A stretch of 52,978 nucleotides of DNA from Methylothermaceae bacteria B42 (lineage in GTDB: Bacteria; Pseudomonadota; Gammaproteobacteria; Methylococcales; Methylothermaceae), in assembly GCA_001566965.1 (NCBI GenBank), contig LSNW01000036.1, positions 1-52,978 on the forward strand, given 5' to 3'. The notes beneath the pieces were generated by a model. The model was not told the origin of the DNA. It ran no database searches and was given only the letters and a program-made list of their open reading frames with translations. Shown here piece by piece: positions 2,544-49,504 of the stretch (the first letter of the stretch is position 1; every line of letters begins with the position of its first letter). The position numbers were made by a program, and so were the translations under genes.

Positions 2544-5059
2544 CTTCGCTTTCCTTTCTGGCAGGATTTCGTTTTCTCAAGCATCATCCATGGCAAATTT
2601 CGCTGACGCTTTTTGGCGTCGTACTGGGCGTGGCGGTAGTGATCGCCATAGATTTGGCGAAAACAAGCGCGTTGGTTTCATTCGATCGGGCCACTGCCGC
2701 GGTTCTAGGCAAAGCCACCCACAGAATCACTGCAACTGACGGCCTGGATGAGAACCTGTATCGAAAACTGTGCTTGGGGGGTATTCGCAAGATCAAGCCC
2801 GTGGTGGAAGGTTATATCCAGGCGCAAGGTGACTCACTCAAGTTGATTGGCATTGATGCCTTGGCGGAAGCCGGATTTGATTCTCTTTGGACGCAAACAT
2901 CGGGACAACAAGGATTCCAGTTGTGGCGGCGGATAATTACAGAGCCAGGCGCTGTGGCGATGGGGAAATCGCTCGCAGAAAAGTTGAACTTGAAATTGGG
3001 CGATACATTTAAAATCAAAGCCGGCGAAAAAGATCAGAAGCTGCATCTGGTTGGTATCCTTAATCCCAGCAATGCGCTTCAGCGTCAGGCACTGAAAAGT
3101 TCGGTAATTACCGATATTGCAACTGCCCAGGAGATCTTTGACAAAATTGGCCTGCTGACAGCCATTGATGTGATAGTGGATGAAAATCAGCCGGAAGCTG
3201 AAATATTAAAGTTGTTGCCGAAAAACGCCGATTGGATGACGCGGGAGGCCGGTAAAACCTCCGCACGGCAAATGACCCGGGCTTTCTATATCAATCTGAC
3301 GGCATTGAGCCTGCTTTCCTTATTGGTCGGCATGTTTTTGATATACAACAGCGTCAGTTTTCTTGCTGTTCAACGCCGCAAATTATTCGGTATCTTCCGG
3401 GTGTTGGGTCTCACCCACCAGCAAATTCTTTTAGGCGTACTGTTGGAAGCAGCTATGTTGGGTATGCTAGGAAGTTTTCTGGGCGTTTTGTCAGGGATTG
3501 GACTGGGCCGGGTCCTCTTGGATTTACTGGCCAAAACGCTCAATGACGTGTATTTCCCTATGCCGGGGGCTGAATTGTCGCTGCAACCATTTTCCCTGAT
3601 GAAAGGATTCGTTTTGGGATTGGGCGCCACGCTGCTGGCCGCGGCCAAACCGGCTCTGGAGTCCTCCCGGGTCAACCCGGTGACCGTGATGGCTCGTTCG
3701 GTACTGGAACATCAGGCCCGAAGGCGTGCGCGGGCTGCTTTTGTGGCTGGTATCGTTATGGTGGGTACTGGGTTGATGATGCTTGCCGCCACCTCTAAAC
3801 TCACGGCCGGTTTTGTTGCCCTGACTTTGGTCGTGCTCGGCTGTGCCCTATTTATTCCATTATTGACCTTGTTGCTTATGCAAGGCTTGCAAAACCTGGG
3901 TGGAAAGCTATTTGGCATTCTTGGGCGAATGCCGCCCCGCTCGGTTTCTGTTTCCCTCAGCAGAACGGGCGTGGCAACCGCGGCGTTGATGGTGGCAATG
4001 GCCACGACCATAGGAATGAGCTTGATGATCCACAGTTTCCGTCATTCGGTTGCCCTATGGTTGGAACGACGCCTGGATGCCGATTTCTATCTTTATACCT
4101 CTGGCCGCGATGTCACCCGGCGTCCGCAACTTCCCCTCGAATTTGCACGGGAAATCCTGAAAGTACCTGGCGTGGCGGGCATTGGCAGTGTCCGTTATTT
4201 ACGTCAACCCACGGATCATGGATTTTTACGGATCAACGCCTACCAAATTACTCCTCAATCCTTTGCTATCTTCCAATTCAAGAAAAAGGCAGTAGCGGAC
4301 GTATGGGCCGCCTTTCAAAATGGCTGGGTAATTGTTTCCGAGGCGTATGCTTCACTCCATGGCGTAGAAGCCGGCGATACCATCCAGTTGCCGACGGCCA
4401 ACGGCATGCAACCGTTTAAAGTGGCGGCTGTTTTCATCGATTACAATGCGGGCCGGGGGATTGTGGCGATGGATCGCAAGATTTACAACCAGTATTGGCA
4501 TGACGATCAAGTTTCCACCTATTGGATTTATTTGAAAGACGGCGCTGATTCGGACGCCGTTACTGATAATCTGCGTAACCTCAAGCCTGCGGGATATTTG
4601 CAGATCAGCGATAACCGGAGCTTGCTGCGCCTGTCTCTGCGGATTTTCGATCAAGCCTTTGCCGTGACGACATTATTGCGATGGTTGACCACTGGCGTGG
4701 CGTTTGTTGGTGTGTTCAGCGCGCTGCTTGCCTTGCAGCTGGAGCGAGTCCGGGAAATGGGAATCCTCCGGGCCTTGGGATTGACGCCGCGGCAACTGTG
4801 GGGACAAATTTTGGCGGAAACCGCCTGTTTGGGGATACTGGCTGGCGTACTGGCTATTCCGGTGGGTATCACCATGGGTTGGCTTTTGATTGAAGTAATC
4901 AATCACCGGGCCTTTGGCTGGACGTTGGAGATGACCATCGACGGTTCTATCCTTGTGGGCGGGGTAGCATTGGCGGTGACGGCCGCTGTGCTGGCAGGTT
5001 TGTATCCCGCCTGGAAGATGTCGCGGACTTCTCCCGCCGAGGCATTGCGATACGAGTGA
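2540..5059 (+). CDS. ABC transporter permease of the FtsX/MacB-like family (YbbP-like, duplicated FtsX modules)
   Basis: 839 aa. It has two blocks of 4 TM helices separated by a large soluble region, as in FtsX-domain permeases. It is translationally coupled to the upstream ATPase. Confidence 0.8.
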   Translation: MTSLSFLAGFRFLKHHPWQISLTLFGVVLGVAVVIAIDLAKTSALVSFDRATAAVLGKATHRITATDGLDENLYRKLCLGGIRKIKPVVEGYIQAQGDSLKLIGIDALAEAGFDSLWTQTSGQQGFQLWRRIITEPGAVAMGKSLAEKLNLKLGDTFKIKAGEKDQKLHLVGILNPSNALQRQALKSSVITDIATAQEIFDKIGLLTAIDVIVDENQPEAEILKLLPKNADWMTREAGKTSARQMTRAFYINLTALSLLSLLVGMFLIYNSVSFLAVQRRKLFGIFRVLGLTHQQILLGVLLEAAMLGMLGSFLGVLSGIGLGRVLLDLLAKTLNDVYFPMPGAELSLQPFSLMKGFVLGLGATLLAAAKPALESSRVNPVTVMARSVLEHQARRRARAAFVAGIVMVGTGLMMLAATSKLTAGFVALTLVVLGCALFIPLLTLLLMQGLQNLGGKLFGILGRMPPRSVSVSLSRTGVATAALMVAMATTIGMSLMIHSFRHSVALWLERRLDADFYLYTSGRDVTRRPQLPLEFAREILKVPGVAGIGSVRYLRQPTDHGFLRINAYQITPQSFAIFQFKKKAVADVWAAFQNGWVIVSEAYASLHGVEAGDTIQLPTANGMQPFKVAAVFIDYNAGRGIVAMDRKIYNQYWHDDQVSTYWIYLKDGADSDAVTDNLRNLKPAGYLQISDNRSLLRLSLRIFDQAFAVTTLLRWLTTGVAFVGVFSALLALQLERVREMGILRALGLTPRQLWGQILAETACLGILAGVLAIPVGITMGWLLIEVINHRAFGWTLEMTIDGSILVGGVALAVTAAVLAGLYPAWKMSRTSPAEALRYE

Positions 5060-35837: not shown

Positions 35838-36566
35838 TTACCGTGCTCCGCGCAATAGCCACCGCCAAGCGGATATTTTGGAGGCTGAAAGCGGCTGGCG
35901 CCGGTCATCCCATTCACTGCCGCCCAGTCGTTTGGCCAATGCGTGGCAAGTGTGCATCATGCGGTCAAAAGTGGCTTCTGGATCGTTGACCAAGGCAGGC
36001 TGGAAAAACAGGGTAATGCCGGGGGTGCTGAAATTCTCCATGTCCTCGGCTGGAAAAATTCCAGGTTTTACCAGGCTGGCGACGCTGAATTGAATATTTT
36101 CTCCTTGGTAAAAATGAAAAATATCCATTTCTCCATGTTTCAGCCCCAAATCCTGGAAGGCCTTGAGCAGGGCAATTCCTTGAAAAGTCTCGCCATCTGG
36201 CGCGGCAATACTGACTTGTATGACTTCTGGCAAAGCGGTTTTGCTTTCTTTTTTGGCTGGCGCAGGTTCAGGGGGCGGGGGAGCCGGTTCGGCAGGTTCT
36301 TCGGATGGGGGGGGTTCCTCTCCAGCAAGCTGTTGGTTTTCCAAAACCTCGGAATCGGGAGATGCGGATTCTTCCATGGGATTGAGGGAGATGGTATCGA
36401 CTTCTTCCGGCTCGAAGTCGTCTTCCCAGGTGATATCGGCATCAAGGTCGGCAAATTCCTGGTCCAACGCTTTTTTATGGCGCTTCCAGCGGTCCCAAAG
36501 ATAAATCCCCAGAATCAACAGGACCCCGGCGACAGCCAGGATGATGCGAAGTGTGGTCTTTTCCAT
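35838..36566 (-). CDS. zipA: Cell division protein ZipA
   Basis: N-terminal TM (LRIILAVAGVLLILGIYLW) followed by a charged region, a Pro/Glu-rich linker, and a C-terminal FtsZ-binding domain; conserved zipA-ligA adjacency. Confidence 0.85.
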   Translation of the reverse strand: MEKTTLRIILAVAGVLLILGIYLWDRWKRHKKALDQEFADLDADITWEDDFEPEEVDTISLNPMEESASPDSEVLENQQLAGEEPPPSEEPAEPAPPPPEPAPAKKESKTALPEVIQVSIAAPDGETFQGIALLKAFQDLGLKHGEMDIFHFYQGENIQFSVASLVKPGIFPAEDMENFSTPGITLFFQPALVNDPEATFDRMMHTCHALAKRLGGSEWDDRRQPLSASKISAWRWLLRGAR

Positions 36567-36581
36567 TGCAATCCTCTTCCT

Positions 36582-39500
36582 CTATGCGGCCGCCATTTCC
36601 GCGGCTTTTTCCAGATCCACGGCGACAATGCGGGAAACGCCGGGTTCGCGCATGGTCACGCCAATCAACTGCTCGGCGATTTCCATGGTGGTTTTATTGT
36701 GACTGATAAATATGAATTGTACCCGCTCTGACATGGATTGCAGAAGTTGGCAATAGCGTCCCACATTGGCCTCATCCAGTGGCGCGTCAACTTCGTCCAG
36801 CAGGCAAAAAGGCGCGGGGTTCAATTCAAAGAAGGAGAATACCAGCGCCACGGCGGTCAGCGCCTTTTCGCCGCCGGAGAGAAGATGAATGGAGCTGTTG
36901 CGCTTGCCGGGCGGGCGGGCGACAATTTTGACCCCGGCATCGAGCAGGTCTTCTCCCACCAGTTCCAGTTTGCCTTCGCCGCCGCCAAACAGGGTGGGGA
37001 AGCGTTGCTTGAAATGACCGTCGATGGTGTCAAAGGTTTCCTTGAAACGGGCCCGGCTTTCCCGGTCGATTTTGCGGATGGCTTTTTCCAGCATTTTCAG
37101 GGAAGCGTTTAAATCCTCGAATTGCTTGTCGAGAAAGCGCAGGCGTTCGCTGTGGAGGCGATGTTCCTCGATGGCGGTCAGGTTGACATCCCCCAGCCGG
37201 GCTTGCTCGGCCTTGGTTTGTTCCAGTTTGGCTTGCCATTGACTGGCGCTGGCGTCTTCGGGTAATTGACTCAACACCCCATCCAGCGGCGTTTGGGATT
37301 CCTGGGCTTGTTCTTGTACCGTAGTGAGTTTGACCCGTGCCGCTTCGGCATCGAGCCGGGCCTGTTCCAGGCGCTGGCGGGCTTGGTCCAGATCCGATTG
37401 GGCTTTATGATGGCGGGCGGTGAAATCCTGAAGCTGGTTTTCCGCCTGTTGCAACGCTTCCCTGGATTGCGTTAGCGCTTGTTCCAGCGGCGGGCGTTGT
37501 GCGAGGAGAGATTGGAGCTCTTGCTGCGCCTCCGCCAGAGGTTTTTTGCCCTCGCTTTGTTGGGACTGCGCGCCTTGTAAGCGTTCCCGCAGCGCTTGCT
37601 GATGCTGCGATGCCCGTTCCAACTGTTGGTGTAATAATTTGGCGGCGTTGTTGCAATGCTCCAGGGAAGATTCCAGTTTTTGCCGTTGTTCCCGCATGCG
37701 GCGGGCATGGGCGTCGGCTTGTTCAAAATCGGAGCGGGCCTGATGGGATTGGTTTTGCAGTGTATTCAAGTGCTGGCTGTATTGCTGTTCTTCTTGTTCC
37801 AGGTAGTGTAACTGCGCTTGTTGCCGGGAGAGATTTTCCTCAAATTCCGCCAGCTGACCTTCAAGCGTGGCTTGTTCCTCGGCCATTCTTGTCAGACGCC
37901 GCTGAATTTCCCCGACCCTGGCGCGGGTGGCGCTCAATTCGGCCTGAATCTTGCCGGCCTGCTGGGTGTGTTCTTTTTCCTGCTGGCGCAAGGATTCCTG
38001 CCGTTTTTCCAGTGCTTCCAGTTTCGTTTGGTACTGGTGGAGCATAGTCTGGGTTTGGGTTTGGCGGTTTTCTATTTCAACTAATTGGGCCTTGAGTTCC
38101 CGCAAGGCCTTTTCCCGTTCGAGAACACCGTGAGTGTTATCCTCGCCACGTTGAAATCGCAGCCAGTCGCGGCCAATCCGGTCACCCTCCGGCGTAACCC
38201 AGAAGTCTCCGGGGTTTAATTGATGACGCTGACGCAATCCCTTTTCCAGGGAATCACAACAGCGGGCGCCTTTCAGCAGGGAATCGAGATTCCACGGGCT
38301 TTGGATTTTGGCCGCCAGGGTCTCGGAATCTGGGGAAGACGCCATGGATTGGCCATGAAAAAACGCGGCATTTTCCTGATCCAGTTGACTGGCCAGTTGG
38401 TGGCAAAGATCCAGGTCTTCAATGCAAACCGCTTCCAGGAATTCCGCCAACACGGTTTCCACGGCATTGCTCCAGCCTTCGGCGGTTTCCAGCCGTTCCG
38501 CCAGGCGGGGAGCGTTGTCCCAGCCATGTTGCGCCAACAACGCATGCAGCTTGGGTTTGTCCTTGCCCAGTGCGTGGCGCTGCAGGGTTTCCATGGCGCG
38601 GATTTCTCCCTGAACCTGGCTGTGCTGACTGTGCAGGGATTGCAGTTGTTTCTGGGTTTCCGTGAGCGATTGGCGCAGGGCTTGAATTTGCTCCTTGACG
38701 GACTGGAGCGATTCGGCGTGTTGGGCGCGGGCGGTTTCGGTTTCTGCCAGTGCCTGTTCCAATCGGGATAAATTGGCTTGTTCGGCATTTTGATCCAGCT
38801 GGCTATGTTCTTCCCGCAGGCGGCTGAGGCGGTTTTGGGCTTCTTCCCGGCGCTGCTTGAGGTGGCGGATTTCCAGGCGCAACAATTCCAGTTGTTCTTT
38901 TTTTTGGTTCAATTCATCCCGCTTTTGGGCAAATTCCCGGCGCAGTTGATGCCACCGGGTTTCGGTGTCTTCACGCTGCTTCCAGGCTGCTTGTTCGTCA
39001 GCCCGGGCTTGTTCCAGAGCTTTTTCCAACTGTTGGCCTTGGGCTTGGTACGTTTCCTGTTGCCTGCGGTCCTGCTGGCTGGCGGCTTCAATGCGTTGCA
39101 ATTCATCCCGCCAGGCTTTGAGGCTTTTCTCCCGTTCTTCCAGGGTTTTTTGGGCGTGTTGGATGGTCTGATCGCAACGGCTGATGGCGCTGTTTAATTC
39201 ATAAAGCCGGGCCTGTAAGTCGTGGAGCTGGGTTTGGGTTTCCTCCACGCTTTGTTGCTGGCGGGATAAAGCCTGCCCCAGTTCGTGCAGGGCAGTGGTT
39301 TTGCTGTCTACTTCTTGTTGAAGCGTCTGGATCTTTTCTTGATGGGTTTGATGGGCGGCATTGGCTTCGCGCCATTTGATGGCCAGTAACTCTTGTTGTT
39401 GTTGCTGAATGGTCTGCTGCAACTCCCGGTACTTTGCCGCCTTTTTGGCTTGGCGTTCCAAGCGTTTGACCTGGGTTTGCAGCTCACTGCGAATATCTTC

Positions 39501-40082
39501 CAACCGTTCCAGATTGGTCCGGGTGTGCTGGATTTTCAGTTCGGTCTCGTGGCGGCGTTCCTTATATTTGGACAGGCCCGCAGCTTCCTCAATGAACAGC
39601 CGCAATTCTTCCGGCTTGGCCTCCACAAAACGGGACACCATGCCCTGTTCGATAATGGCGTAGCTTCTTGGCCCCAAGCCGGTTCCCAGAAACACGTCCA
39701 TAATATCGCGGCGGCGGCAGCGGGTACCATTGAGAAAATATTGGGATTGCCCGTCCCGACTGACCTGGCGTTTGAGCGCGATTTGGGCGTAGCGGGCGTA
39801 TTCTCCGCCCAGCCGGCCTTCGCTGTTGTCAAATATTAGTTCCACACTGGCCAAGCCCACCGGTTTGCGGCTGCTGGAACCATTGAAAATCACATCCGCC
39901 ATGGCGCTGCCACGCAGATGTTTGGCGGAACTTTCCCCCATCACCCAACGTACCGCGTCGATAATGTTGGACTTGCCGCAACCATTGGGGCCGACAATGC
40001 CAATCAACCGTTTGGGGAAAACGATGGTGGTGGGTTCGACAAAGGATTTGAAGCCGGCGAGTTTGATTTTTTCCAGACGCAT
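36582..40082 (-). CDS. smc: Chromosome segregation protein SMC
   Basis: 1166 aa with N-terminal Walker A GPNGCGKSN, long coiled coils, a hinge, and C-terminal LSGGEKALTAVAL ... LLDEVDAPLD (signature and Walker B). Confidence 0.95.
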   Translation of the reverse strand: MRLEKIKLAGFKSFVEPTTIVFPKRLIGIVGPNGCGKSNIIDAVRWVMGESSAKHLRGSAMADVIFNGSSSRKPVGLASVELIFDNSEGRLGGEYARYAQIALKRQVSRDGQSQYFLNGTRCRRRDIMDVFLGTGLGPRSYAIIEQGMVSRFVEAKPEELRLFIEEAAGLSKYKERRHETELKIQHTRTNLERLEDIRSELQTQVKRLERQAKKAAKYRELQQTIQQQQQELLAIKWREANAAHQTHQEKIQTLQQEVDSKTTALHELGQALSRQQQSVEETQTQLHDLQARLYELNSAISRCDQTIQHAQKTLEEREKSLKAWRDELQRIEAASQQDRRQQETYQAQGQQLEKALEQARADEQAAWKQREDTETRWHQLRREFAQKRDELNQKKEQLELLRLEIRHLKQRREEAQNRLSRLREEHSQLDQNAEQANLSRLEQALAETETARAQHAESLQSVKEQIQALRQSLTETQKQLQSLHSQHSQVQGEIRAMETLQRHALGKDKPKLHALLAQHGWDNAPRLAERLETAEGWSNAVETVLAEFLEAVCIEDLDLCHQLASQLDQENAAFFHGQSMASSPDSETLAAKIQSPWNLDSLLKGARCCDSLEKGLRQRHQLNPGDFWVTPEGDRIGRDWLRFQRGEDNTHGVLEREKALRELKAQLVEIENRQTQTQTMLHQYQTKLEALEKRQESLRQQEKEHTQQAGKIQAELSATRARVGEIQRRLTRMAEEQATLEGQLAEFEENLSRQQAQLHYLEQEEQQYSQHLNTLQNQSHQARSDFEQADAHARRMREQRQKLESSLEHCNNAAKLLHQQLERASQHQQALRERLQGAQSQQSEGKKPLAEAQQELQSLLAQRPPLEQALTQSREALQQAENQLQDFTARHHKAQSDLDQARQRLEQARLDAEAARVKLTTVQEQAQESQTPLDGVLSQLPEDASASQWQAKLEQTKAEQARLGDVNLTAIEEHRLHSERLRFLDKQFEDLNASLKMLEKAIRKIDRESRARFKETFDTIDGHFKQRFPTLFGGGEGKLELVGEDLLDAGVKIVARPPGKRNSSIHLLSGGEKALTAVALVFSFFELNPAPFCLLDEVDAPLDEANVGRYCQLLQSMSERVQFIFISHNKTTMEIAEQLIGVTMREPGVSRIVAVDLEKAAEMAAA

Positions 40083-40354: not shown

Positions 40355-40711
40355 ATGTCGACAAAACCCAGCAGAGAACTTGAAACCTTCCCCAACCCTA
40401 ACCCGGATCGTGATTACACTATCCGTATCGAGACCCCGGAATTTACCTGCTTGTGTCCTAAAACCGGGCAGCCGGATTTCGCCCACATCACCGTGGAATA
40501 TATTCCCGATAAATTATGCGTGGAACTCAAATCCTACAAGCTTTATATCTGGTCCTACCGCGATCTGGGCGCCTTTCACGAGGCGGTCACCAACCAGATT
40601 CTGGATGATTTGGTAGGGGCGTGCCAACCCCGCTGGATGAAGGTGGAAGCCAAATTCAACGTCCGCGGCGGGATTTACACCACCGTGATGGCGGAATACG
40701 AAAGAAACTGA
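40355..40711 (+). CDS. queF: NADPH-dependent 7-cyano-7-deazaguanine reductase QueF (unimodular type)
   Basis: 118 aa with [17 protein letters not shown] (the QueF catalytic Cys motif, E(F/S)K..S.CP.TGQPD) and the QueF E...E-type C-terminus. Confidence 0.9.
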
Positions 40712-40854: not shown

Positions 40855-42657
40855 ACGATGGAGATGAATACAGCGCCAGAAATCTCCCAACTGGTCTGGC
40901 AGACCAAGTACCGGGCCGAGGGCGAGACAAGTATTCGCGATACCTGGCAGCGGGTGGCCAACGCGGTGGCGTCGGTGGAAGCGGATGCCGATGAGTGGAG
41001 CGGCCGGTTTTACGCCATTTTGAAGGATTTTAAATTCCTTCCCGGCGGGCGAATCCTTGCCGGTGCCGGCACCCGCAAACAAGTCACCTTGTTCAACTGC
41101 TTTGCAATGGGGTTGATAGAAGATTCCCTGGACGGAATCTTCGAATCCCTAAAGGAAGGGGCCTTGACCATGCAGCACGGTGGCGGCGTCGGTTATGATT
41201 TTTCCACCCTCCGCCCCAAGGGTACCCCGGCCCGCAGCGTGGGCGGCATCGCTTCGGGCCCGGTGTCCTTTATGCATATTTGGGATGTGACCTGTGCCAT
41301 TCTCCTGTCCACCGGCAGCCGCCGGGGTGCCATGATGGCGACTTTGCGCTGCGATCATCCCGATGTCGAAGACTTTATCGAAGCCAAGCGCGATCCCAAT
41401 GTCTTGCGTAATTTCAACCTCTCGGTCAAGGTCACGGATGATTTCTTGAAGGCCGTGGAAAAGGACGAGGAATGGCTGCTGGTGTTTCCTCAAGCCGCGT
41501 TGGCTGATGGGGTGGGAGAGGGGGCCGTGCTTCGCGAGTGGCCCGGCTACCCGGGACCGGTACCATGTAAGATACTGAAGCGTCTCCCGGCCCGGGATTT
41601 ATGGCACAGGTTGATGCAAGCGACTTATGATGTGGCGGAACCTGGGGTGCTGTTCATTGACCGCATCAACCACCTCAACAATCTGTACTATTGCGAAAAG
41701 ATCCATATCACCAACCCCTGCTCGGAAATTCCATTGCCGCCTTACGGGGCTTGCGATTTGGGGTCAATTAATCTGGTCCGCTTTGTCCGTGATCCTTTCA
41801 CCCCAGAAGCCCGCCTAGATTTCCAGGCCATTGAAGCATTGGTGCCCGTGGCGGTGCGTTTTCTCGATAATGTGATTGACTTATCCCGGTTTCCCCTCAC
41901 CCGGCAAAAGGCGCAGGCCCATAAGACCCGGCGGATCGGACTGGGACTGACAGGATTGGCGGATGTGCTGATTATGCTGGGACTTCACTATGACAGTGAC
42001 GCCGCCAGGGAATTGGCCGAAAAAATCATGGCCACCATCTGCCATGCCGCTTACCGGGCATCGGTGGCTTTGGCGAAGGAAAAGGGTGCTTTTCCCGCTT
42101 TTGAAGCGGAGCCCTATTTGGATGGCGCTTTCGTTACCGGGTTGCCAAATGACATTCGCGATGCCATCGCCAAGCATGGACTCCGTAATAGCCACTTGAC
42201 CGCCATCGCGCCCACCGGTTCTATCAGCCTGCTGGCGGGCAACGTCTCCAGCGGTTTGGAACCGGTTTTTTCCTTCCGGTATCAACGCCGCATCCAACTG
42301 GCTGGCACTGAGTGCCGGATGGTGGATGTGGAAGACGCCGCTTACCGCTTATGGCGGAAAATATATTCAGACAAGCCCTTGCCTTCCACCTTTGTCACCG
42401 CCACCGAACTTTCCCCAAACGCCCATTTGGTCATGCAGGCAGTTCTGCAAAAGCATGTGGACAATGCCATTTCCAAAACCATTCATATTCCAGAAGACTA
42501 CCCCTTTGAGGATTTCCAGAATGTGTATCTGCGCGCCTACCAACTGGGGCTCAAAGGCTGCACCACCTACCGCCCCAGCCCTGTTCGCGGCACCGTCATC
42601 CTGCCGCAAACCGTGCCGGACCGGCATTGCTGTGATATTGATCGGGAGGGGGATTAG
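40855..42657 (+). CDS. nrdJ: Adenosylcobalamin-dependent (class II) ribonucleoside-diphosphate reductase NrdJ
   Basis: Class-II RNR motifs including NPCSEIPLPPYGACDLGSINL and a C-terminal Cys pair. The start was refined to ATG 40855 (MEMNTAPEIS). The last 18 codons lie inside a 54-bp sequence that recurs at 49451. Confidence 0.85.
   Translation, partial: TMEMNTAPEISQLVWQTKYRAEGETSIRDTWQRVANAVASVEADADEWSGRFYAILKDFKFLPGGRILAGAGTRKQVTLFNCFAMGLIEDSLDGIFESLKEGALTMQHGGGVGYDFSTLRPKGTPARSVGGIASGPVSFMHIWDVTCAILLSTGSRRGAMMATLRCDHPDVEDFIEAKRDPNVLRNFNLSVKVTDDFLKAVEKDEEWLLVFPQAALADGVGEGAVLREWPGYPGPVPCKILKRLPARDLWHRLMQATYDVAEPGVLFIDRINHLNNLYYCEKIHITNPCSEIPLPPYGACDLGSINLVRFVRDPFTPEARLDFQAIEALVPVAVRFLDNVIDLSRFPLTRQKAQAHKTRRIGLGLTGLADVLIMLGLHYDSDAARELAEKIMATICHAAYRASVALAKEKGAFPAFEAEPYLDGAFVTGLPNDIRDAIAKHGLRNSHLTAIAPTGSISLLAGNVSSGLEPVFSFRYQRRIQLAGTECRMVDVEDAAYRLWRKIYSDKPLPSTFVTATELSPNAHLVMQAVLQKHVDNAISKTIHIPEDYPFEDFQNVYLRAYQLGLKGCTTYRPSPVRGTVILPQTVPDRHCCDIDREGD
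42603..42656 (+). repeat. 54-bp direct repeat, copy 1 (encodes the NrdJ C-terminus)
   Basis: GCCGCAAACC-GTGC-CGGACCGGCATTGCTGTGATATTGATCGGGAGGGGGATTA. The 40-bp core is identical to 49465-49504. Confidence 0.85.
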
Positions 42658-42844
42658 TTCAAGAGGTCATATCACATTAAAATTCAGGTAAAACTTGCCT
42701 TTGAGAGAAAGTGGTTTCTGCTAAACGAATTTGCCGCTCAGTTTGAGAACGAATAATGGGATTACCGTTGCATTTGCAAACTCAATGACTGTCACGCGCC
42801 GAAATCACTTGTGCGCCGATAAAGCGGAGTTTGCTTCAGTCAAG

Positions 42845-42867
42845 GTTGGGGCAATATCGCCCCAACC
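42845..42867. terminator. Strong 9-bp GC hairpin immediately after the SPFH gene stop, convergent with nrdJ
   Basis: GGTTGGGGC-aatatc-GCCCCAACC, with a weak U-tract on the plus strand only. Confidence 0.45.
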
Positions 42868-44040
42868 TCATCCATTCGCGGTTTTCCCCAAAGCTGCGGG
42901 AATGCGCACCATATCATTAAGAATGCCGTCCAATCCGCCATAGACGTTCAAGGTGCTGATTTGGCTGGTGATTTTCTCCAGCACTTCCAGTTCCTTCAAG
43001 CGCAATAGCGTTGGGTTGCCTTCCATGACTTTGGCGGTATTGTGCAGTGACCGGGTCGCCTGGGTTTCTTCCCGGCGCTTGATCAGATTGGCTTCAGCCC
43101 GTTTTTGCGCTTCCACCACCTGGGCCAGGATAGTTTTCATTTCCCCGGGCAGGACAATATCCCGGGCTCCCACGCTGACGACGGTGATGCCGTATTCAGC
43201 GGCTTTTTTGGCAGCGATTTTCTTGACCTCCTGGTTCAACTGGTTTTTGTCCTCCAGCAGTTCATCCAGGGTTTGGGTGGAAACCACCGCCCGCAATGCC
43301 AGTTGCAATTCCCGATAGAGGAAGTCGTCCGGACTGGCGAGGGATTCACATACCTTGAGCGCATCGGCAACTTGCCAGGTTGCCGATAGATTGATGCGCA
43401 GGCTGACCCGGTCCTTGGTGAGGATTTCTTGGCCATTGACTTCCATGTTTTGCAACCGGCAGTCAATCTGACGGATTTTCAGATTGCGGTTGAATTTCCA
43501 CCAGGCGTGAATACCCGGCTCTAATGCAATAGGTTGTTCACCGTCGATTTCCAGAAACCCCACATGTTGTTGAGGGATGGTTGCGGTGATGACGGCATCC
43601 ACGGCGGAAGCTCTCAATTGCGGGGCTTTGGATGCCAGCACGATTCTGGCCAGGGTTTTGTCCAGTTTGAACTCCCGTAAAATGTTCAGCTTACGCACTT
43701 CGATATCGCCAAATCCACGCCAATACGCGCCTTCCCGGGCGGGTGGCTTGATTTCCCGCAGGGCGCCGTTGTTATAGACCAGCCCCACTTCCTGCTCGCC
43801 GGTTTGCCAGGATTGCAAATGTCGCCCCAAAATTTCGGGGTGCAATTTCAAAACCTTTAGAACTTCATCGCTGACACCGTTTTCCAGGGTGGTGCTAATG
43901 TCTTCCAGCAAAACCCGGTATTTCCTGTTCCAATTTAATAGTCTGTAAACGCCGGGCATTAAAACCTTTTGAAATTGTTCGTTCCTGAACAACAGACCCC
44001 GATGGGTTTCGGGAACGATGATTTTTTTAAAAAACAACAT
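42868..44040 (-). CDS. SPFH/band-7 (stomatin/flotillin-like) domain protein, apparently soluble, co-directional with and downstream of rtcB
   Basis: ~390 aa from ATG 44040 (MLFFKKIIVPETHRGLLFRNEQF...LMPGVY...), a typical SPFH N-terminal strand pattern. Band-7 core ...ILTKDRVSLRINLSATWQV... and a long C-terminal coiled coil (EAQKRAEANLIKRREETQATR). No TM segment is seen. RBS AAGGAG. Confidence 0.75.
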   Translation of the reverse strand: MLFFKKIIVPETHRGLLFRNEQFQKVLMPGVYRLLNWNRKYRVLLEDISTTLENGVSDEVLKVLKLHPEILGRHLQSWQTGEQEVGLVYNNGALREIKPPAREGAYWRGFGDIEVRKLNILREFKLDKTLARIVLASKAPQLRASAVDAVITATIPQQHVGFLEIDGEQPIALEPGIHAWWKFNRNLKIRQIDCRLQNMEVNGQEILTKDRVSLRINLSATWQVADALKVCESLASPDDFLYRELQLALRAVVSTQTLDELLEDKNQLNQEVKKIAAKKAAEYGITVVSVGARDIVLPGEMKTILAQVVEAQKRAEANLIKRREETQATRSLHNTAKVMEGNPTLLRLKELEVLEKITSQISTLNVYGGLDGILNDMVRIPAALGKTANG

Positions 44041-44354
44041 AGTCTTCTCCTTGCTTGAAACAAAATTCAAATGGCAAAAGCCCCACGCTCAGCCCGGCCC
44101 AATGGTTTGTGAAACCCAGGAGGATCAAGGGTGGGAGGGATATTGTCCCTCCGGGCCATGAACCCGCTGGAATCAAACCCGCCACCGGGGCGGTCTGGAC
44201 GCTGATTCTTGCCATGGTTTGGCAGTCTCCGGCTTCCGCGGTGTGGGGCTTCCGTTTGGCTGCCCCGCGCCGGGAAACTTGAAGGCTTCCATTCCACGGC
44301 GCGAATCCGGGGTTTTTACCGTATGCCCTTGCGGGAGGAAAGAACGCCTTTCGG

Positions 44355-44431
44355 CTGGTAACGCTAGCCGGATTCGAACCGGCTACCCATCGATTACAGA
44401 TCGATTGCTCTACCAGAATGAGCTATAGCGT
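44355..44431 (-). tRNA. tRNA gene with encoded CCA and non-canonical features: A1-U72 and A2-U71 in the acceptor, and anticodon loop UCUGUAA (anticodon UGU, Thr-like, with C at position 33)
   Basis: 77-nt perfect cloverleaf on the minus strand: acceptor AACGCTA/TAGCGTT, D-stem GCTC/GAGC, anticodon stem ATCGA/TCGAT, T-stem GCCGG/CCGGC with T-loop TTCGAAT, discriminator A, then CCA. Isotype is uncertain because U33 is replaced by C. The palindromic ATCGAT makes the loop register the only ambiguity. Confidence 0.8.
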
Positions 44432-44457
44432 TGGTCATGAGATGGATTCGAACCATC
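44432..44457 (-). ncRNA. tRNA 3'-half-like fragment (T-arm plus 3' acceptor strand) abutting the 5' end of the tRNA gene
   Basis: The minus strand reads GATGG-TTCGAAT-CCATC-TCATGAC-C, a consensus T-arm followed by a 7-nt acceptor strand and discriminator. No complementary 5' acceptor strand exists upstream, so it is not a complete tRNA. Confidence 0.5.
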
Positions 44458-44633
44458 GTAACCACGTCGGGAAGACGCTATCCATTCCGTTCTGCCAGAT
44501 ACGCCCAGACTCAGTGAGTCCGGCGTCAGGCTGGTATCCAGAACCAGCACCGCAAGACAGCCCGGAAATGAATTCCTGGGGGGTATCCCCCCACCAGCAG
44601 GCGGCACTGGCATTCGGCCGCCACCGGTATGTT

Positions 44634-45863
44634 TTATCCTTTGACACAAACCACCTGTTTCAGTGTGTGGACAATTTCCACCAAGTCCCGCTGGGCGGCC
44701 ATCACTTGTTCAATGGGTTTGTAAGCCGCTGGGGTTTCATCAATGACGCCCTCGTCCTTGCGGCATTCCACGCCGTCGGTGGCCAGCAGGTGCTGTTCCA
44801 GGGTGATTGCCTTTTTGGCCTCGGTGCGGGACATGACCCGGCCCGCGCCGTGACTGCAGCTGCAAAAGCTTTCCTCATTGCCCAGGCCCCGGACGATAAA
44901 AGATTTGGCTCCCATGCTGCCGGGGATGATGCCCATTTCTCCCTTTCTGGCGCTGACCGCGCCCTTGCGGGTTACCCAGACCCCCTGGCCATAATGCTGC
45001 TCCTTGCGGATGTAGTTGTGGTGGCAGTTCACCGCTTCCAGCGCCGATTCGAAAGTTCGTCCCAAGGCTTTGGCGATGACTTGCAGGGTTCTTCTCATCA
45101 TGACCTCCCGGTTGACCCGGGCGAAATCCTGTGCCCAGGCCACCGCGGCTACATAGTCAGTGAAGTGTTCGCTGCCTTCGGGCAAATAAGCCAGATCCTG
45201 GGCGGGAAGGTGAATGAACCAGCGCTCCATTTCTTTCTTCGCCTTTTCAATGAAATGGTTGCCTATGGCATTACCAACCCCTCTTGAACCACTGTGCAGC
45301 ATTACCCAAACTTGCTGGTTTTCATCCAGACACACTTCGATAAAATGATTGCCGGTACCTAGTGTTCCCAGATGTTTGATATTATTGGTGTTTTTTATGA
45401 ATCCATGCTTTTCCGTCAGGCGATTGAATCCCTCGGCCAATGGTTGCCAGGCGTCGGCTACATCCTCTGGCACCTCGCCCCAACTTCCCTTGTCCCGTGC
45501 GCCGCGCCGTAATTTTTTGGAGCGGCCGTGGGGGACCGCCTTTTCAATGGCGCTGCGCATGTTACCCAGATGATCTGGCAGATCACTGGTGGTAAGGGAA
45601 GTTTTTACCGCCATCATCCCGCATCCCAAGTCAACGCCAACCGCAGCGGGAATCACCGCGCCCACCGTGGGAATCACGCTTCCGATAGTCGCGCCTTTGC
45701 CGACGTGGACATCAGGCATGGCCGCCACCCAGCGGTGGATAAAAGGCATCCGGGTAAGATTCAACAGCTGTTGTCTGGTTTTATCGTCGCATGGCACGCC
45801 CCGGGTCCAGGATTTCACCGGAACCTGGGAATAGGCTTCATGCATTACTTCGTAACTGACCAT
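44634..45863 (-). CDS. rtcB: RNA-splicing ligase RtcB (3'-phosphate/5'-hydroxyl RNA ligase)
   Basis: 409 aa with RtcB-family His/Cys metal-ligand motifs (...DVHVGKGATIGSV..., CHHNY, GTGNHFIEV, and the SCSHGAGR region around the nucleophilic His). RBS AGGAGA. No rtcA is adjacent. Confidence 0.92.
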   Translation of the reverse strand: MVSYEVMHEAYSQVPVKSWTRGVPCDDKTRQQLLNLTRMPFIHRWVAAMPDVHVGKGATIGSVIPTVGAVIPAAVGVDLGCGMMAVKTSLTTSDLPDHLGNMRSAIEKAVPHGRSKKLRRGARDKGSWGEVPEDVADAWQPLAEGFNRLTEKHGFIKNTNNIKHLGTLGTGNHFIEVCLDENQQVWVMLHSGSRGVGNAIGNHFIEKAKKEMERWFIHLPAQDLAYLPEGSEHFTDYVAAVAWAQDFARVNREVMMRRTLQVIAKALGRTFESALEAVNCHHNYIRKEQHYGQGVWVTRKGAVSARKGEMGIIPGSMGAKSFIVRGLGNEESFCSCSHGAGRVMSRTEAKKAITLEQHLLATDGVECRKDEGVIDETPAAYKPIEQVMAAQRDLVEIVHTLKQVVCVKG

Positions 45864-45903: not shown

Positions 45904-45919
45904 AGCATGGAGCGTGCCA
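45904..45919 (-). promoter_or_regulatory. Sigma54 (-24/-12) promoter upstream of rtcB
   Basis: The minus strand reads TGGCACGCTCCATGCT, with the GG and GC dinucleotides spaced exactly as in the consensus TGGCACG-N4-TTGCW. It lies ~40 nt upstream of the rtcB start and is divergent from rtcR. Confidence 0.7.
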
Positions 45920-46054: not shown

Positions 46055-47644
46055 ATGAATAATACCGTTGTAAGTATTTTGGGCCAGCGTCTGGATAATG
46101 CTGGATACGGCCAAAAACGCTGGTTGCGTTGGCGTCCTACTTTATCGCTACTCATGCACCATGAGTTTCCCGTGGACGAACTGGTCTTGATCCACCATCG
46201 GGAGGAACAACGCCTGGCGGATCTCACCATGAATGATGTCTTGCACATCTGTCCCGGCTTGAAGGTGACACCCTATGTTACCGACTTTCATGATCCCTGG
46301 GATTTTGAGCAGGTCTATGGCCAGCTCCATGATTTTGCCCACGACTATCCTTTCGATCCTGAGCGCCGCCAATATTATTTCCATATCACTACTGGCACCC
46401 ATGTTGCCCAGATATGTGTGTATTTGCTGACCGAGGCGAATTATTTCCCGGGCAAATTAATTCAAACCGCCCCGAGTAAAACCGGCCCTGACGGCGTTTA
46501 TCAGATTATCGACCTGGATTTATCCCGTTATGACAAGATCGCTTCCCGTTTCCGCCGGGAAGAACAGGAGGCTATTCGCCATCTCAAAAGCGGAATCGAG
46601 ACCCGCAACCGTGGATATAACCAGATGATTACGGAAATAGAGCAGGTGGCGGTACGGTCCACGGCGCCGATTTTCCTGACCGGTCCCACTGGCGTTGGCA
46701 AATCCCACCTGGCCAGGAAAATCTATGAATTAAAGCGGCAACGGGGCCAACTCACGGGACGTTTTGTGGAAGTTAATTGCGCCACCTTGCGCGGCGATAA
46801 TGCCATGTCTACTTTGTTTGGCCATGTGAAGGGCGCTTATACCGGGGCCGCCCGAGACCGGGCCGGATTGTTAATGGAAGCAGACGGCGGTTTGCTGTTT
46901 TTGGACGAAATCGGCGAGCTGGGGCTGGACGAGCAAGCCATGTTGTTGCGCGCCATTGAGGACCGGGTATTTACACCCCTCGGTTCGGATCGTGAGGTCA
47001 GCAGTCATTTTCAGTTGATTGCGGGCACCAACCGGGATTTGCAAGAGCGGATAAGCCAGGGACTGTTTCGGGAGGATTTGTTGGCCCGGATAAACTTGTG
47101 GCGCTACAGTTTGCCCAGCCTGCGGGAAAGATCAGAAGATATCGAACCCAATATTGAGTTTGAATTGCAACGCTTTGCCCGGGAACGGAACCAGAAGGTC
47201 AGCTTCAACCGCGCCGCCAAAGCCAAATATCTCGCCTTTGCCTTAAGCAACGAGGCCTTGTGGCGGGCTAACTTCCGGGATTTGAACGCCAGCATCACTC
47301 GCATGGCCACCCTGGCCACCAGTGGCAGAATCAGCGAGGAAATTGTGGAAAACGAACTTGCCCGCTTGCGGGCGGATTGGCAGGGTGGCGTCAGGCTTGA
47401 TGAAGACTTTGATTCCCTCGGGGCGTTGTTAAAAAAGGATGTTTATGAGCAGCTTGATCTGTTCGAGCGGCTTCAACTTGCCCAGGTTATCCGTATCTGC
47501 CAGCAAAGCCACAGCCTGGCCGACGCCGGCCGGAAATTGTTTGACAAAAGCCGCTTGCGCAGAAAAGCTGGTAATGATTCACAGCGTCTTCGGGCGTATC
47601 TCCAAAAATACGGTTTAGTATTTAAAGACTTGCAGCTAAGCTAG
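46055..47644 (+). CDS. rtcR: Sigma54-dependent transcriptional activator RtcR (N-terminal CARF domain, AAA+ sigma54-interaction domain, C-terminal HTH)
   Basis: 529 aa. The N-terminal ~190 aa resemble the RtcR CARF domain. AAA+ Walker A GPTGVGKS, GAFTGA-like loop GAYTGA, and ESELFGH-type region (STLFGH) are present. C-terminal HTH. Divergent from sigma54-promoted rtcB. Confidence 0.92.
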   Translation: MNNTVVSILGQRLDNAGYGQKRWLRWRPTLSLLMHHEFPVDELVLIHHREEQRLADLTMNDVLHICPGLKVTPYVTDFHDPWDFEQVYGQLHDFAHDYPFDPERRQYYFHITTGTHVAQICVYLLTEANYFPGKLIQTAPSKTGPDGVYQIIDLDLSRYDKIASRFRREEQEAIRHLKSGIETRNRGYNQMITEIEQVAVRSTAPIFLTGPTGVGKSHLARKIYELKRQRGQLTGRFVEVNCATLRGDNAMSTLFGHVKGAYTGAARDRAGLLMEADGGLLFLDEIGELGLDEQAMLLRAIEDRVFTPLGSDREVSSHFQLIAGTNRDLQERISQGLFREDLLARINLWRYSLPSLRERSEDIEPNIEFELQRFARERNQKVSFNRAAKAKYLAFALSNEALWRANFRDLNASITRMATLATSGRISEEIVENELARLRADWQGGVRLDEDFDSLGALLKKDVYEQLDLFERLQLAQVIRICQQSHSLADAGRKLFDKSRLRRKAGNDSQRLRAYLQKYGLVFKDLQLS

Positions 47645-47894: not shown

Positions 47895-49334
47895 TTAACG
47901 GGCGATACGCGCCGAAATCACCTGGGTTCTGACAGTACGCAGCCTTTTTGCGGGCAGGTTGCGTAGGCCCAGGTTGATATATCTTGTTCTGCCGGCCAGC
48001 AAAACGCCGAATAAACGGCGCTTGAATTGCCGACTGTGTCCTCTGGCGTCCTGGTATTGAACGGCAATGACGACGCCTCTCATATCATGCTGGGTTGGAT
48101 TGCTTATCTCGGCTTTCAAGCGCCCAAACAAATCCACGCCGGTTCTGAGGCGCAGGTATTGCCCGGGATTACCGCCGCGAGGATTAACCAGCGATTTGCG
48201 GGAAGATTTGCCGCGCCCAACAATACTACGCCAAGGCAAAAGGCAGTATCGGTGGGCGGCCAGGGTATTGTCCAGGTATTTGTTGAGCAGGGCGCGTTTC
48301 AGATAGTAATAGAAAAAATCGCCATTCAGGCGGATGGCTTTGTCGAAGTGTCTTTTGGCGGCACGGAAATTTTGTCTTTTCCCTTCGATATCTCCGAGCA
48401 GCGCGCAAAAATGGCCTTCCTTGGGTTCGATCTGGATGGCCTTATTGGCCAGCCTGAGCGCCTGGCTGAGATCGCCTTCCGCCAGAGCCTTCCGCCCCTT
48501 GCCATAGGCATCGTAAGCTGGTTTGACCCGTTTGAGATGGGCCAGTTTTTGTCGAAAGCGCTTAACCCCTATAATGCCGCCCTTGGGTAATGTCGCCGCG
48601 GTTCGCATGTTATTTTCCACCCGTTCCTGTGACGGCGGGTGGCTGGCAAGCAAGCCAGTCAACCAGTTCCGCCGGCGTCCCTTGGCCAGCTCGACAAAGG
48701 TTTTTTGCAAGGTGACCGCCCCCTGCGGGTCATAACCCGCCCTAGACATATATTTCATGCCGTAGAGGTCTGCTTCCCGTTCCGCGTCCCGGCCATATTC
48801 TGGGTTAGAAGCGCCGAGCCTAACTGGGCGCCCAAGGTTGCCAGCTGGGCATAATTGGAACCCTGGGTGCCGATGGCGGTCGCCAAAATCGCGCCTTTTA
48901 ACAACATGCCACGGGATAATTTGCGGGCGGTGTGTTTTGCTGCCGCATGCACGATTTCATGACCAAGCACGGCCGCCAGCTCGGCTTCGTTATTGAGTTC
49001 CGTCAGCAGGCCCCGGTTAATTGAAATCTTCCCGCCAGGCAGCGCCCAGGCGTTGGGAACGGAATTGTTGATAACCTTGAATTCATATGGTAAGCGGCGG
49101 TCGCTGACAGCCGCCAGCTTTTGGCCGATTTCGTTTACATAGGCGGTCAATTCTGGATCGGCCACATAATCCCCTCCCTGGATTTGCCGCATGGGGGCGT
49201 AATTTTTTTGCCCGATTTGCAGTTCAATGGATTCGGGAACCAACATTAGCTCTCTGTGACCTGTGACAGGATTGACCGCGCAGCCACCCAGGCAAATGGC
49301 AAGCAGAAGCAGGGAAAAAAGCAGATTTTTTCAT
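47895..49334 (-). pseudogene. M48-family Zn metallopeptidase lipoprotein (BepA/YcaL-like, HExxH plus C-terminal TPR) interrupted by two frameshifts
   Basis: HEIVHAAAKH (HExxH) lies in ORF 48755-49246. The conserved EYGRDAEREADLYGMKYMSRAGYDP continues in another frame (ORF 47895-48758), with the shift near 48795. A perfect lipoprotein signal (MKN)LLFSLLLLAICLGGCAVNPVTGHREL is only in frame with an ATG at 49332-49334 if a T6/A6 homopolymer (49326-49331) is one nt shorter. Confidence 0.7.
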
Positions 49335-49450
49335 TTTCGCAAGTCCAAGCAGTTATATTACCGAGCCGCTGTAGTTGAATGCGGTTAGCAGTCCGTTGAT
49401 TTTAGATGTATTTTTGAGTTACGTTGTGTTGATGTCAATACAGTCAGAAT

Positions 49451-49504
49451 GCCGCAAACCTTGTCGGACCGGCATTGCTGTGATATTGATCGGGAGGGGG
49501 ATTA
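49451..49504 (+). repeat. 54-bp direct repeat, copy 2 (degenerate copy of the nrdJ 3' end, intergenic)
   Basis: GCCGCAAACC-TTGT-CGGACCGGCATTGCTGTGATATTGATCGGGAGGGGGATTA. The 40-bp core is identical to 42617-42656; the 5' part differs by the substitution GTGC to TTGT. Confidence 0.85.

Follow-up and report, generated by a model that had tools for sequence, protein, structure and literature searches.

The SPFH/band-7 gene that follows the RNA ligase gene rtcB was analysed computationally in a 52,978-nt stretch of DNA from Methylothermaceae bacteria B42 (the window, meaning the whole stretch). Our analysis revealed that this locus is very likely a member of the predicted RtcB/Band-7/tRNA-like-RNA ('b7a-tRNA') RNA-repair system. 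An earlier note on this DNA had placed the locus outside the known RtcR regulons. This does not hold: the arrangement is not new, having already been published in 2012 for Pelobacter and in 2016 as the Band-7/b7a-tRNA/RtcB system. Comparison of relatives demonstrated that the invariant core of the system consists of the RNA and the SPFH gene, and that rtcB and rtcR, though frequent partners, may be lacking. The tandem or composite architecture of the RNA and the diversification of its anticodon may not have been described before.

Results

Conservation of the RNA–SPFH module

Scanning one genome per species yielded 80 loci, with proteins 55–72% identical, from Methylococcales, Thiotrichales, Cellvibrionales, Gallionellaceae and Methylophilaceae. 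In 78 of the 80 loci, ARAGORN detected a tRNA-like gene on the same strand, 230–490 nt 5′ of the SPFH start, and two directly abutting tRNA-like genes are present in 45 loci. Linkage to rtcB was counted in the 68 loci that have enough upstream flank. Of these, 57 (84%) have rtcB 5′ of the module on the same strand: it stands directly before the RNA in 46, usually with a divergent rtcR, and in a further 11 it is found 1.5–4.4 kb upstream, separated from the module by unrelated genes. A more distant clade (L086–L089) was reached by searching without a profile, using the N-terminal domain, and by searching for homologues a second time; in all four loci examined in this clade, a tRNA-like gene lies 340–480 nt before the SPFH gene. 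These counts bear out the expectation that orthologues of the SPFH gene are linked to rtcB; the tightest partner of the SPFH gene, however, is not rtcB but the tRNA-like RNA (78/80 loci and 4/4 distant loci).

No rtcA gene was found in the whole 53-kb window, and rtcA is missing from nearly all close relatives. The earlier note had suggested that the SPFH gene occupies the place of rtcA. This idea had to be given up, because rtcA and the SPFH gene co-occur in two relatives, L008 and L089, the latter with the order rtcR/rtcB–rtcA–RNA–SPFH. The SPFH gene is thus an add-on, and not a positional or functional substitute for rtcA.

Organization and regulation of the locus in the window

The gene order described in the earlier note, in which rtcB is followed by a tRNA element and then by a gene for an SPFH protein of about 390 amino acids, was confirmed by the open reading frame (ORF), the Band_7 and RtcB matches and the tRNA call. 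The features of the locus are as follows, where MFE stands for minimum free energy.

46055–47644, plus strand: rtcR, divergent from the operon, coding for a CARF-type sensor domain and a sigma-54 activator AAA+ domain
45904–45919, minus strand: sigma-54 promoter motif TGGCACGCTCCATGCT (GG-N10-GC), 41 nt 5′ of the rtcB start codon, found by a regular-expression scan
44634–45863, minus strand: rtcB, RNA ligase gene, 409 amino acids (Pfam RtcB, 4.1e-131, full length)
44578–44628, minus strand: two G+C-rich hairpins directly 3′ of the rtcB stop codon, without a U tract (MFE fold)
44501–44552, minus strand: 5′ RNA domain with hairpins H1 and H2 (RNAalifold)
44433–44478, minus strand: remnant of tRNA-like unit 1 (fold; alignment to relatives with a full unit 1)
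44356–44432, minus strand: tRNA-like unit 2, the 'b7a-tRNA' (ARAGORN; Rfam tRNA)
44053–44355, minus strand: structured, conserved 3′ leader (alignments; MFE fold)
44047–44052, minus strand: ribosome-binding site (RBS) AAGGAG, 6 nt before the SPFH start codon (sequence)
42868–44040, minus strand: SPFH/band-7 gene, 390 amino acids, ATG start (Pfam Band_7)
42842–42869, minus strand: 12-bp hairpin overlapping the SPFH stop codon (−24 kcal/mol, z −4.3)

The product of rtcR matches Pfam RtcR (5.8e-73) and Sigma54_activat (3.7e-48) and the PADLOC model RtcR--CARF_AAA_HTH (3.7e-242). Among the 46 loci in which rtcB adjoins the RNA, most have a sigma-54 motif (GG-N10-GC) 60–120 nt before rtcB, and none has one in the interval from rtcB to the RNA. 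In the window, neither a sigma-70-like site on the minus strand nor a sigma-54 motif was found between rtcB and the SPFH gene, which agrees with the earlier description of the latter as having a good RBS (AAGGAG) and no obvious promoter. On the simplest reading of the sequence, one transcript from the RtcR/sigma-54 promoter very probably covers both rtcB and the SPFH gene. Of the 22 loci in which rtcB does not directly adjoin the RNA, 14 have their own perfect or one-mismatch TGGCAC-N5-TTGCW motif, located 90–250 nt (mostly 115–130) before the first tRNA-like unit. Because of these motifs, the detached module stays in a sigma-54 regulon, presumably that of RtcR.

Variable inserts between rtcB and the RNA–SPFH module were seen at 1849–4384 in L019, at 2982–4460 in L042 and at 3258–4219 in L062; two of these separated modules, those of L019 and L062, come with a sigma-54 promoter motif of their own.

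The G+C-rich hairpins at 44578–44628 were not found in the alignment of close relatives, and they may, as a peculiarity of the B42 genome, stabilise the RNA or act as a partial terminator.

The intergenic RNA is a composite structure

The gap between rtcB and the SPFH gene, which are encoded on the same strand, is 593 nt (44041–44633) and contains no convincing ORF. What the earlier note called a tRNA element is indeed called as a tRNA at 44356–44432, but it is only one piece of a conserved structured non-coding RNA of about 590 nt. Both halves of the intergenic region fold much better than shuffled sequences (5′ part, z −4.1; 3′ leader, MFE −146 kcal/mol, z −4.7). In the family, the RNA comprises, from 5′ to 3′, a two-hairpin domain, unit 1, unit 2, two small hairpins, of which the second usually has a GNRA loop, and a leader of 200–300 nt. 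In the 5′ domain, H1 (GCUGG...CCAGC) is T-arm-like and H2 is ACGCC...GGCGU; compensatory changes were found for 9 of its 18 pairs (RNAalifold, 36 loci), and the motifs CCTGAC and GTATC are invariant. In the window, the 3′ leader has GNRA hairpins at 44346–44355 and 44326–44335, and its conserved blocks reach the RBS.

Unit 1 of the family has a full 7-bp acceptor stem and a short, variable anticodon loop. Since its encoded N-CCA ends exactly where unit 2 starts, cutting at unit 2 by RNase P would release a CCA-ended unit 1. In the window, unit 1 is reduced to a small hairpin and an acceptor/T-arm minihelix (GGUUCGAAUCC loop), whose end (..GACC) abuts unit 2; unit 1 of L017 is likewise cut down to a hairpin plus an acceptor/T-arm minihelix.

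The unit 2 copy of the window is the most tRNA-like in the family: it folds into a full cloverleaf with the anticodon UGU (Thr-UGU in ARAGORN), a 7-bp acceptor stem and an encoded ACCA, scores 64.1 bits with the Rfam tRNA model, and has C33 in place of U33. Across 57 loci, the orthologous cloverleaf shows covariation at 15 of its 19 pairs and hardly any change in the D- and T-arm sequences. Among the orthologues, 27 different anticodons occur, and the wobble base is near-random (T15, C13, A17, G12; A34 in 17/57). The loop is 5, 7 or 9 nt long, the pair 1–72 is canonical in only 20 of the 57, and U33 and A38 are kept in 45/57 and 54/57 copies, respectively. Because the anticodon, the loop length and the pair 1–72 vary while the pairs of the cloverleaf covary, the RNA is under structural and not decoding selection. 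The sequences on the 5′ and 3′ sides of the units point the same way, being conserved and covarying. In pairs of units with 93–97% body identity the anticodon is the same in only 39%. The anticodon therefore changes faster than the tRNA body, which fits relaxed constraint as well as diversifying selection.

A decoding tRNA-Thr(UGU) was considered as the identity of unit 2 and rejected, given C33 in the window and the 27 anticodons, A34 in 17/57 and 5- and 9-nt loops of the orthologues. The identity pairs of threonyl-tRNA synthetase in E. coli tRNA-Thr are G1–C72 and C2–G71; unit 2 of the window has A1–U72 and A2–U71 instead.

For the intergenic RNA, Rfam 15 returned nothing beyond the tRNA model. 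The Rfam YrlA model (RF02553) reached 24 bits at the junction of units 1 and 2, below its gathering score of 69, and an identity with YrlA or a bacterial Y RNA was rejected for the window on this ground. No Ro60/TROVE (rsr) gene flanks the RNA, which sits between rtcB and the SPFH gene; TROVE was not searched for elsewhere in the window.

Two further features of the RNA were observed in individual relatives. In L011 (4462–4546), unit 1 seems to be circularly permuted, with the topology of the YrlA tRNA-like domain: a T arm, a 7-bp acceptor-like hairpin (UCAC loop) and a D arm are all closed by a new stem. The Rfam YrlA model gave no match in L011. Extra lone T-arm-like hairpins (GGTTCGAnTCC loops) stand beside the main tRNA-like gene in the distant relatives L086 (~4552) and L089 (~4666) and in the closer L017 (~4508), and this RNA may generally contain several T-loop elbows.

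The SPFH protein lacks a membrane anchor and carries an extra SPFH-like domain

The SPFH protein is 100% identical to a database 'hypothetical protein' of Methylothermaceae bacteria B42. Its Band_7 domain (PF01145) spans residues 154–325 (E 2.9e-34; 119.1 bits against a gathering score of 23.6). The start was assigned to the ATG, whose Met is shared by the homologues, and an upstream TTG at 44070 was discounted. No transmembrane (TM) helix was found in the protein, the highest 19-residue Kyte–Doolittle mean being 1.03. The absence of a TM anchor, as proposed in the earlier note, is thus upheld.

An AlphaFold2 model built with 57 homologues (predicted local distance difference test score, pLDDT, 82.7) comprises a beta-rich N-terminal domain (residues 1–150), the SPFH domain (about 150–296) and helices at 299–339 and 343–359. 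The C-terminal tail is modelled with low confidence, yet it carries a VYGGLDG motif that is invariant in the homologues. Foldseek matched the protein to ring-forming members of the SPFH family, the top matches being stomatin, HflK/C, prohibitin, QmcA, erlin, flotillin and the vault shoulder (best E 7e-15 to 1e-10; 7e-15 to 1e-11 for stomatin, HflK/C and prohibitin). The helical segment was aligned with stomatin and HflK/C over 240–280 columns. The long C-terminal coiled coil noticed earlier therefore corresponds to real helices, but these are stomatin/HflK/C-like and not unusually long.

The N-terminal 150 amino acids are a second, divergent SPFH-like domain, that is, an extra copy of the beta part of SPFH. 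This domain defines a modest family of 285 clusters (50% identity, E up to 1e-3). PADLOC gave no defence-system match for the SPFH protein, and NCBIfam gave HflK/C only, below threshold.

Two known identities were considered and rejected. NCBI names the orthologues 'slipin family protein'; a stomatin-type slipin was not accepted, because the N-terminal TM anchor is missing and the N-terminus is a beta-rich soluble domain. No NfeD partner gene adjoins the SPFH gene, its neighbours being rtcB and a ribonucleotide reductase gene. The major vault protein (MVP) was set aside because the protein has no N-terminal MVP repeat domain.

Some homologues are longer. In P0123 (551 amino acids) and P0125 (529 amino acids), the canonical SPFH domain is preceded by one or two additional SPFH-like domains of the N-terminal type, as though repeats had been used to extend the wall of a cage or ring. 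P0020 (530 amino acids) may, judging by its length only, be the same kind of variant.

Ends and surroundings of the locus

Downstream of the SPFH gene lies a convergent gene for a class II ribonucleotide reductase. The strong hairpin that the earlier note had placed after the SPFH gene is there, with 12 bp and z −4.3, but it has no U tract, and intrinsic-terminator prediction did not pick it up.

Two copies of a 65-nt sequence, 91% identical and in direct orientation, are present at 42592–42656 and 49440–49504. Between them is a 6.8-kb segment with the SPFH gene, the RNA, rtcB, rtcR and a split M48 peptidase gene; the first copy supplies the 3′-terminal part of the class II ribonucleotide reductase ORF. 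The repeats look like a target-site duplication arising from insertion into the end of the ribonucleotide reductase gene. Neither an integrase nor a GC shift was found in the segment between them. The Peptidase_M48 gene is apparently split into two ORFs on the minus strand (47895–48758 and 48755–49246) that overlap by 4 nt. The upstream ORF covers profile positions 3–114 of 186, including HExxH, and the downstream ORF the remainder plus TPR repeats. The split could be a frameshift, a pseudogene or an error in the assembly of this metagenome-assembled genome. The housekeeping genes nearby are unrelated to the finding:

35838–36566, minus strand: ZipA (Pfam ZipA_C, 1.8e-37)
36582–40082, minus strand: SMC-like protein, 1166 amino acids, named from its sequence alone
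40355–40711, plus strand: QueF

Discussion

Taking these results together, the locus is probably best explained as a repair system of the known RtcB/Band-7/tRNA-like-RNA type, in which a soluble SPFH ring works with an RNA. An accessory role in RNA repair or in the response to RNA damage, which the earlier note had suggested, is also the best reading here, and it is a published hypothesis as well. By analogy, we tentatively suggest that the SPFH protein and the RNA form a ribonucleoprotein that acts like Ro60 and Y RNA, as a cofactor of an RtcR-controlled response to tRNA damage; we regard this as a possibility, somewhat short of probable. The starting points of this mechanism are those computed here, namely the linkage, the shared sigma-54 motifs, the structural selection on the RNA, the lack of an anchor and the preservation of the ring elements; we infer that the RNA is transcribed and processed, that the protein forms a ring and binds the RNA, and that RtcB is affected.

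According to the mechanism, damage to tRNAs would leave fragments with 2′,3′-cyclic phosphate ends, which would activate RtcR through its CARF domain, as has been shown for Salmonella RtcR. RtcR would then fire the sigma-54 promoter at 45904–45919, so that rtcB, the structured RNA (about 590 nt) and the SPFH gene would be carried on a single transcript. Enzymes of tRNA processing would probably cut the RNA into one or more stable tRNA-like RNAs. The SPFH protein probably forms a soluble ring or cage, as its homology suggests, because it has no membrane anchor and yet keeps all the ring-building elements of SPFH proteins. This ring may bind its cognate tRNA-like RNA, and the particle would take the role proposed for Salmonella Ro60/YrlA, either handing broken tRNAs to RtcB or protecting tRNA-like targets against nucleases that cut anticodon loops. 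The idea raised in the earlier note, that the SPFH protein sequesters damaged RNA or a nuclease, is purely conjectural.

Several observations weigh against this explanation. No rtcB lies within 5 kb in 11 of the 68 informative loci, and no rtc gene lies within the same distance in three of the four distant loci; because of this, the module can work without a linked ligase. The median isoelectric point is 7.9 for the N-domain and 5.8 for the SPFH domain, so that neither is markedly basic. The hairpin at the SPFH stop codon, lacking a U tract, leaves the 3′ end of the operon undefined. In Pseudomonas aeruginosa, a paFlo8 deletion was without phenotype in assays of growth, virulence, motility, biofilm and oxidative stress, a set that did not include RNA damage. 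Finally, b7a-tRNA is described as being without experimental validation in the passages of Wang (2018; bioRxiv 10.1101/312249) that deal with it.

The main rival is a bait or decoy that acts independently of RtcB, which we consider rather unlikely. It proposes that tRNA-like units, whose anticodon loops are canonical while their triplets change freely, lure anticodon-loop nucleases (from toxins, colicins or phage-triggered systems) and that the bait, the cleaved RNA or the nuclease is retained in a soluble SPFH cage, with RtcB as a frequent, optional neighbour that shares the regulon. Such a role would suit the invariance of the RNA and the SPFH gene beside the loci just mentioned that have no rtcB within 5 kb (11/68 and 3/4), the own sigma-54 motif in 14 of the 22 loci with rtcB absent or separated, and the variable genes inserted between rtcB and the module. 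It would also suit an anticodon that changes faster than the body (39% shared at 93–97% identity) within a loop that keeps U33 (45/57) and A38 (54/57). However, the fast change of the anticodon fits relaxed constraint equally well, PADLOC found no defence-system match for the SPFH protein, and rtcB is linked in 84% of the informative loci. In addition, the Salmonella nuclease does not cut the tRNA-like YrlA (Hughes, 2020; PMC7790460).

That the conserved unit is a self-contained soluble ribonucleoprotein, and not RtcB with its helpers, is, in our judgement, unlikely. It would consist of a double-SPFH-domain cage and a composite RNA of about 350–600 nt with two tRNA mimics. Unlikely as a set, too, are the parts that it would bring together: a unit 1 with a shortened anticodon loop and a CCA that RNase P can expose, a unit 2 with a U-turn loop and a diversifying triplet, and a vault-like bait or sensor for anticodon-loop nucleases, switched by RtcR and sigma-54, with RtcB as an optional repair arm.

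Much less likely than the bait, and improbable in its own right, is a cis-acting leader, in which the RNA would not be a separate molecule. Instead, its tRNA-like units and the 300-nt leader would form an operator that sets the translation or stability of the SPFH mRNA and to which the SPFH protein itself or a tRNA-binding factor would bind. The RNA is invariably on the strand of the SPFH gene, 230–490 nt before its start, the conservation extends up to the RBS, and the MFE fold of the window pairs the RBS region with the 5′ end of the leader, all of which an operator would explain. That pairing is not visibly conserved in the family alignment, however, and an operator does not need two complete cloverleaves, invariant T-/D-loop elbows or a unit 1 CCA at the boundary of unit 2. 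In Pelobacter, moreover, the tRNA-like gene precedes stomatin–rtcA–rtcB.

A chance adjacency of an ordinary tRNA-Thr(UGU) gene and a membrane slipin 3′ of rtcB, also much less likely than the bait, could point to the 64 bits, 7-bp acceptor stem and encoded CCA of the window copy and to the NCBI name of the orthologues, but it is effectively refuted by the synteny in 78 of 80 loci across several orders and families, the 27 anticodons of the orthologous RNAs, the window's C33 in place of a near-universal U33 and the lack of a TM segment and of an adjoining NfeD gene.

The B42 locus is thus one more example of a predicted RNA-repair accessory module that was named ten years ago, and what it still offers is a set of comparative details through which the function of the module becomes testable. 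The invariant core of RNA and SPFH gene, the often tandem units with free anticodons and the own sigma-54 promoters of separated modules offer experimental handles. Solving the function of the module would clarify what the widespread RtcR regulon defends against, why ring-shaped proteins pair with tRNA mimics (Ro60/Y RNA and possibly vault/vault RNA), and what an SPFH ring does off the membrane.

Comparison with known systems

The membrane SPFH rings (stomatin, HflK/C, QmcA and prohibitin) share with the window protein the fold, the long helices and the conserved C-terminal segment. The window protein differs from them in having neither a TM helix nor an NfeD or FtsH neighbour, and in adding an N-terminal SPFH-like domain. 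The eukaryotic vault is, for comparison, a soluble cage with an SPFH-like shoulder domain and a small non-coding RNA, and its MVP was matched in Foldseek with E of about 2e-10.

The Salmonella rsr–yrlBA–rtcBA operon is likewise an RtcR/sigma-54-controlled rtcB operon with a ring-forming protein and a tRNA-mimicking RNA. Its ring protein is TROVE/Ro60, whereas the window encodes an SPFH protein. The permuted unit of L011 matches the order of elements in YrlA (T arm, closed acceptor, D arm). Damaged tRNAs activate the RtcR of Salmonella (Hughes, 2020; PMC7790460). In P. aeruginosa, a 2026 study places the SPFH gene of PaFlo8 (PA14_60630) inside an rtcR/rtcB/rtcA locus.

The locus of Pelobacter carbinolicus contains a divergent rtcR, a 'mutant tRNA' (Pcar_R0061), a gene for a stomatin-like protein (Pcar_2837), rtcA1 and rtcB. 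In the mutant tRNA, reciprocal mutations preserve the cloverleaf while the anticodon and position 33 are altered, and this RNA was suggested to be a substrate or guide for RNA enzymes (Aklujkar, 2012; PMC3543383). This locus has in common with the window the divergent rtcR and the altered tRNA-like gene directly before the stomatin-like/SPFH gene. They differ in gene order, which is RNA–SPFH–rtcA–rtcB in Pelobacter and rtcB–RNA–SPFH in the window, where rtcA is missing, and in the end of the RNA, which is buried in the Pelobacter mutant tRNA, whereas the ACCA end of unit 2 is exposed in the window.

The closest counterpart is the system of Band-7, b7a-tRNA and RtcB put forward by Burroughs and Aravind (NAR 2016), as presented in Wang (2018; bioRxiv 10.1101/312249), where the pair of Band-7 protein and tRNA-like RNA is proposed as a functional analogue of Ro60 and YrlA, that is, a scaffold with its RNA cofactor. 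Like that system, the window has a Band-7 gene, rtcB and a tRNA-like RNA, together with RtcR, and the two show no essential difference.

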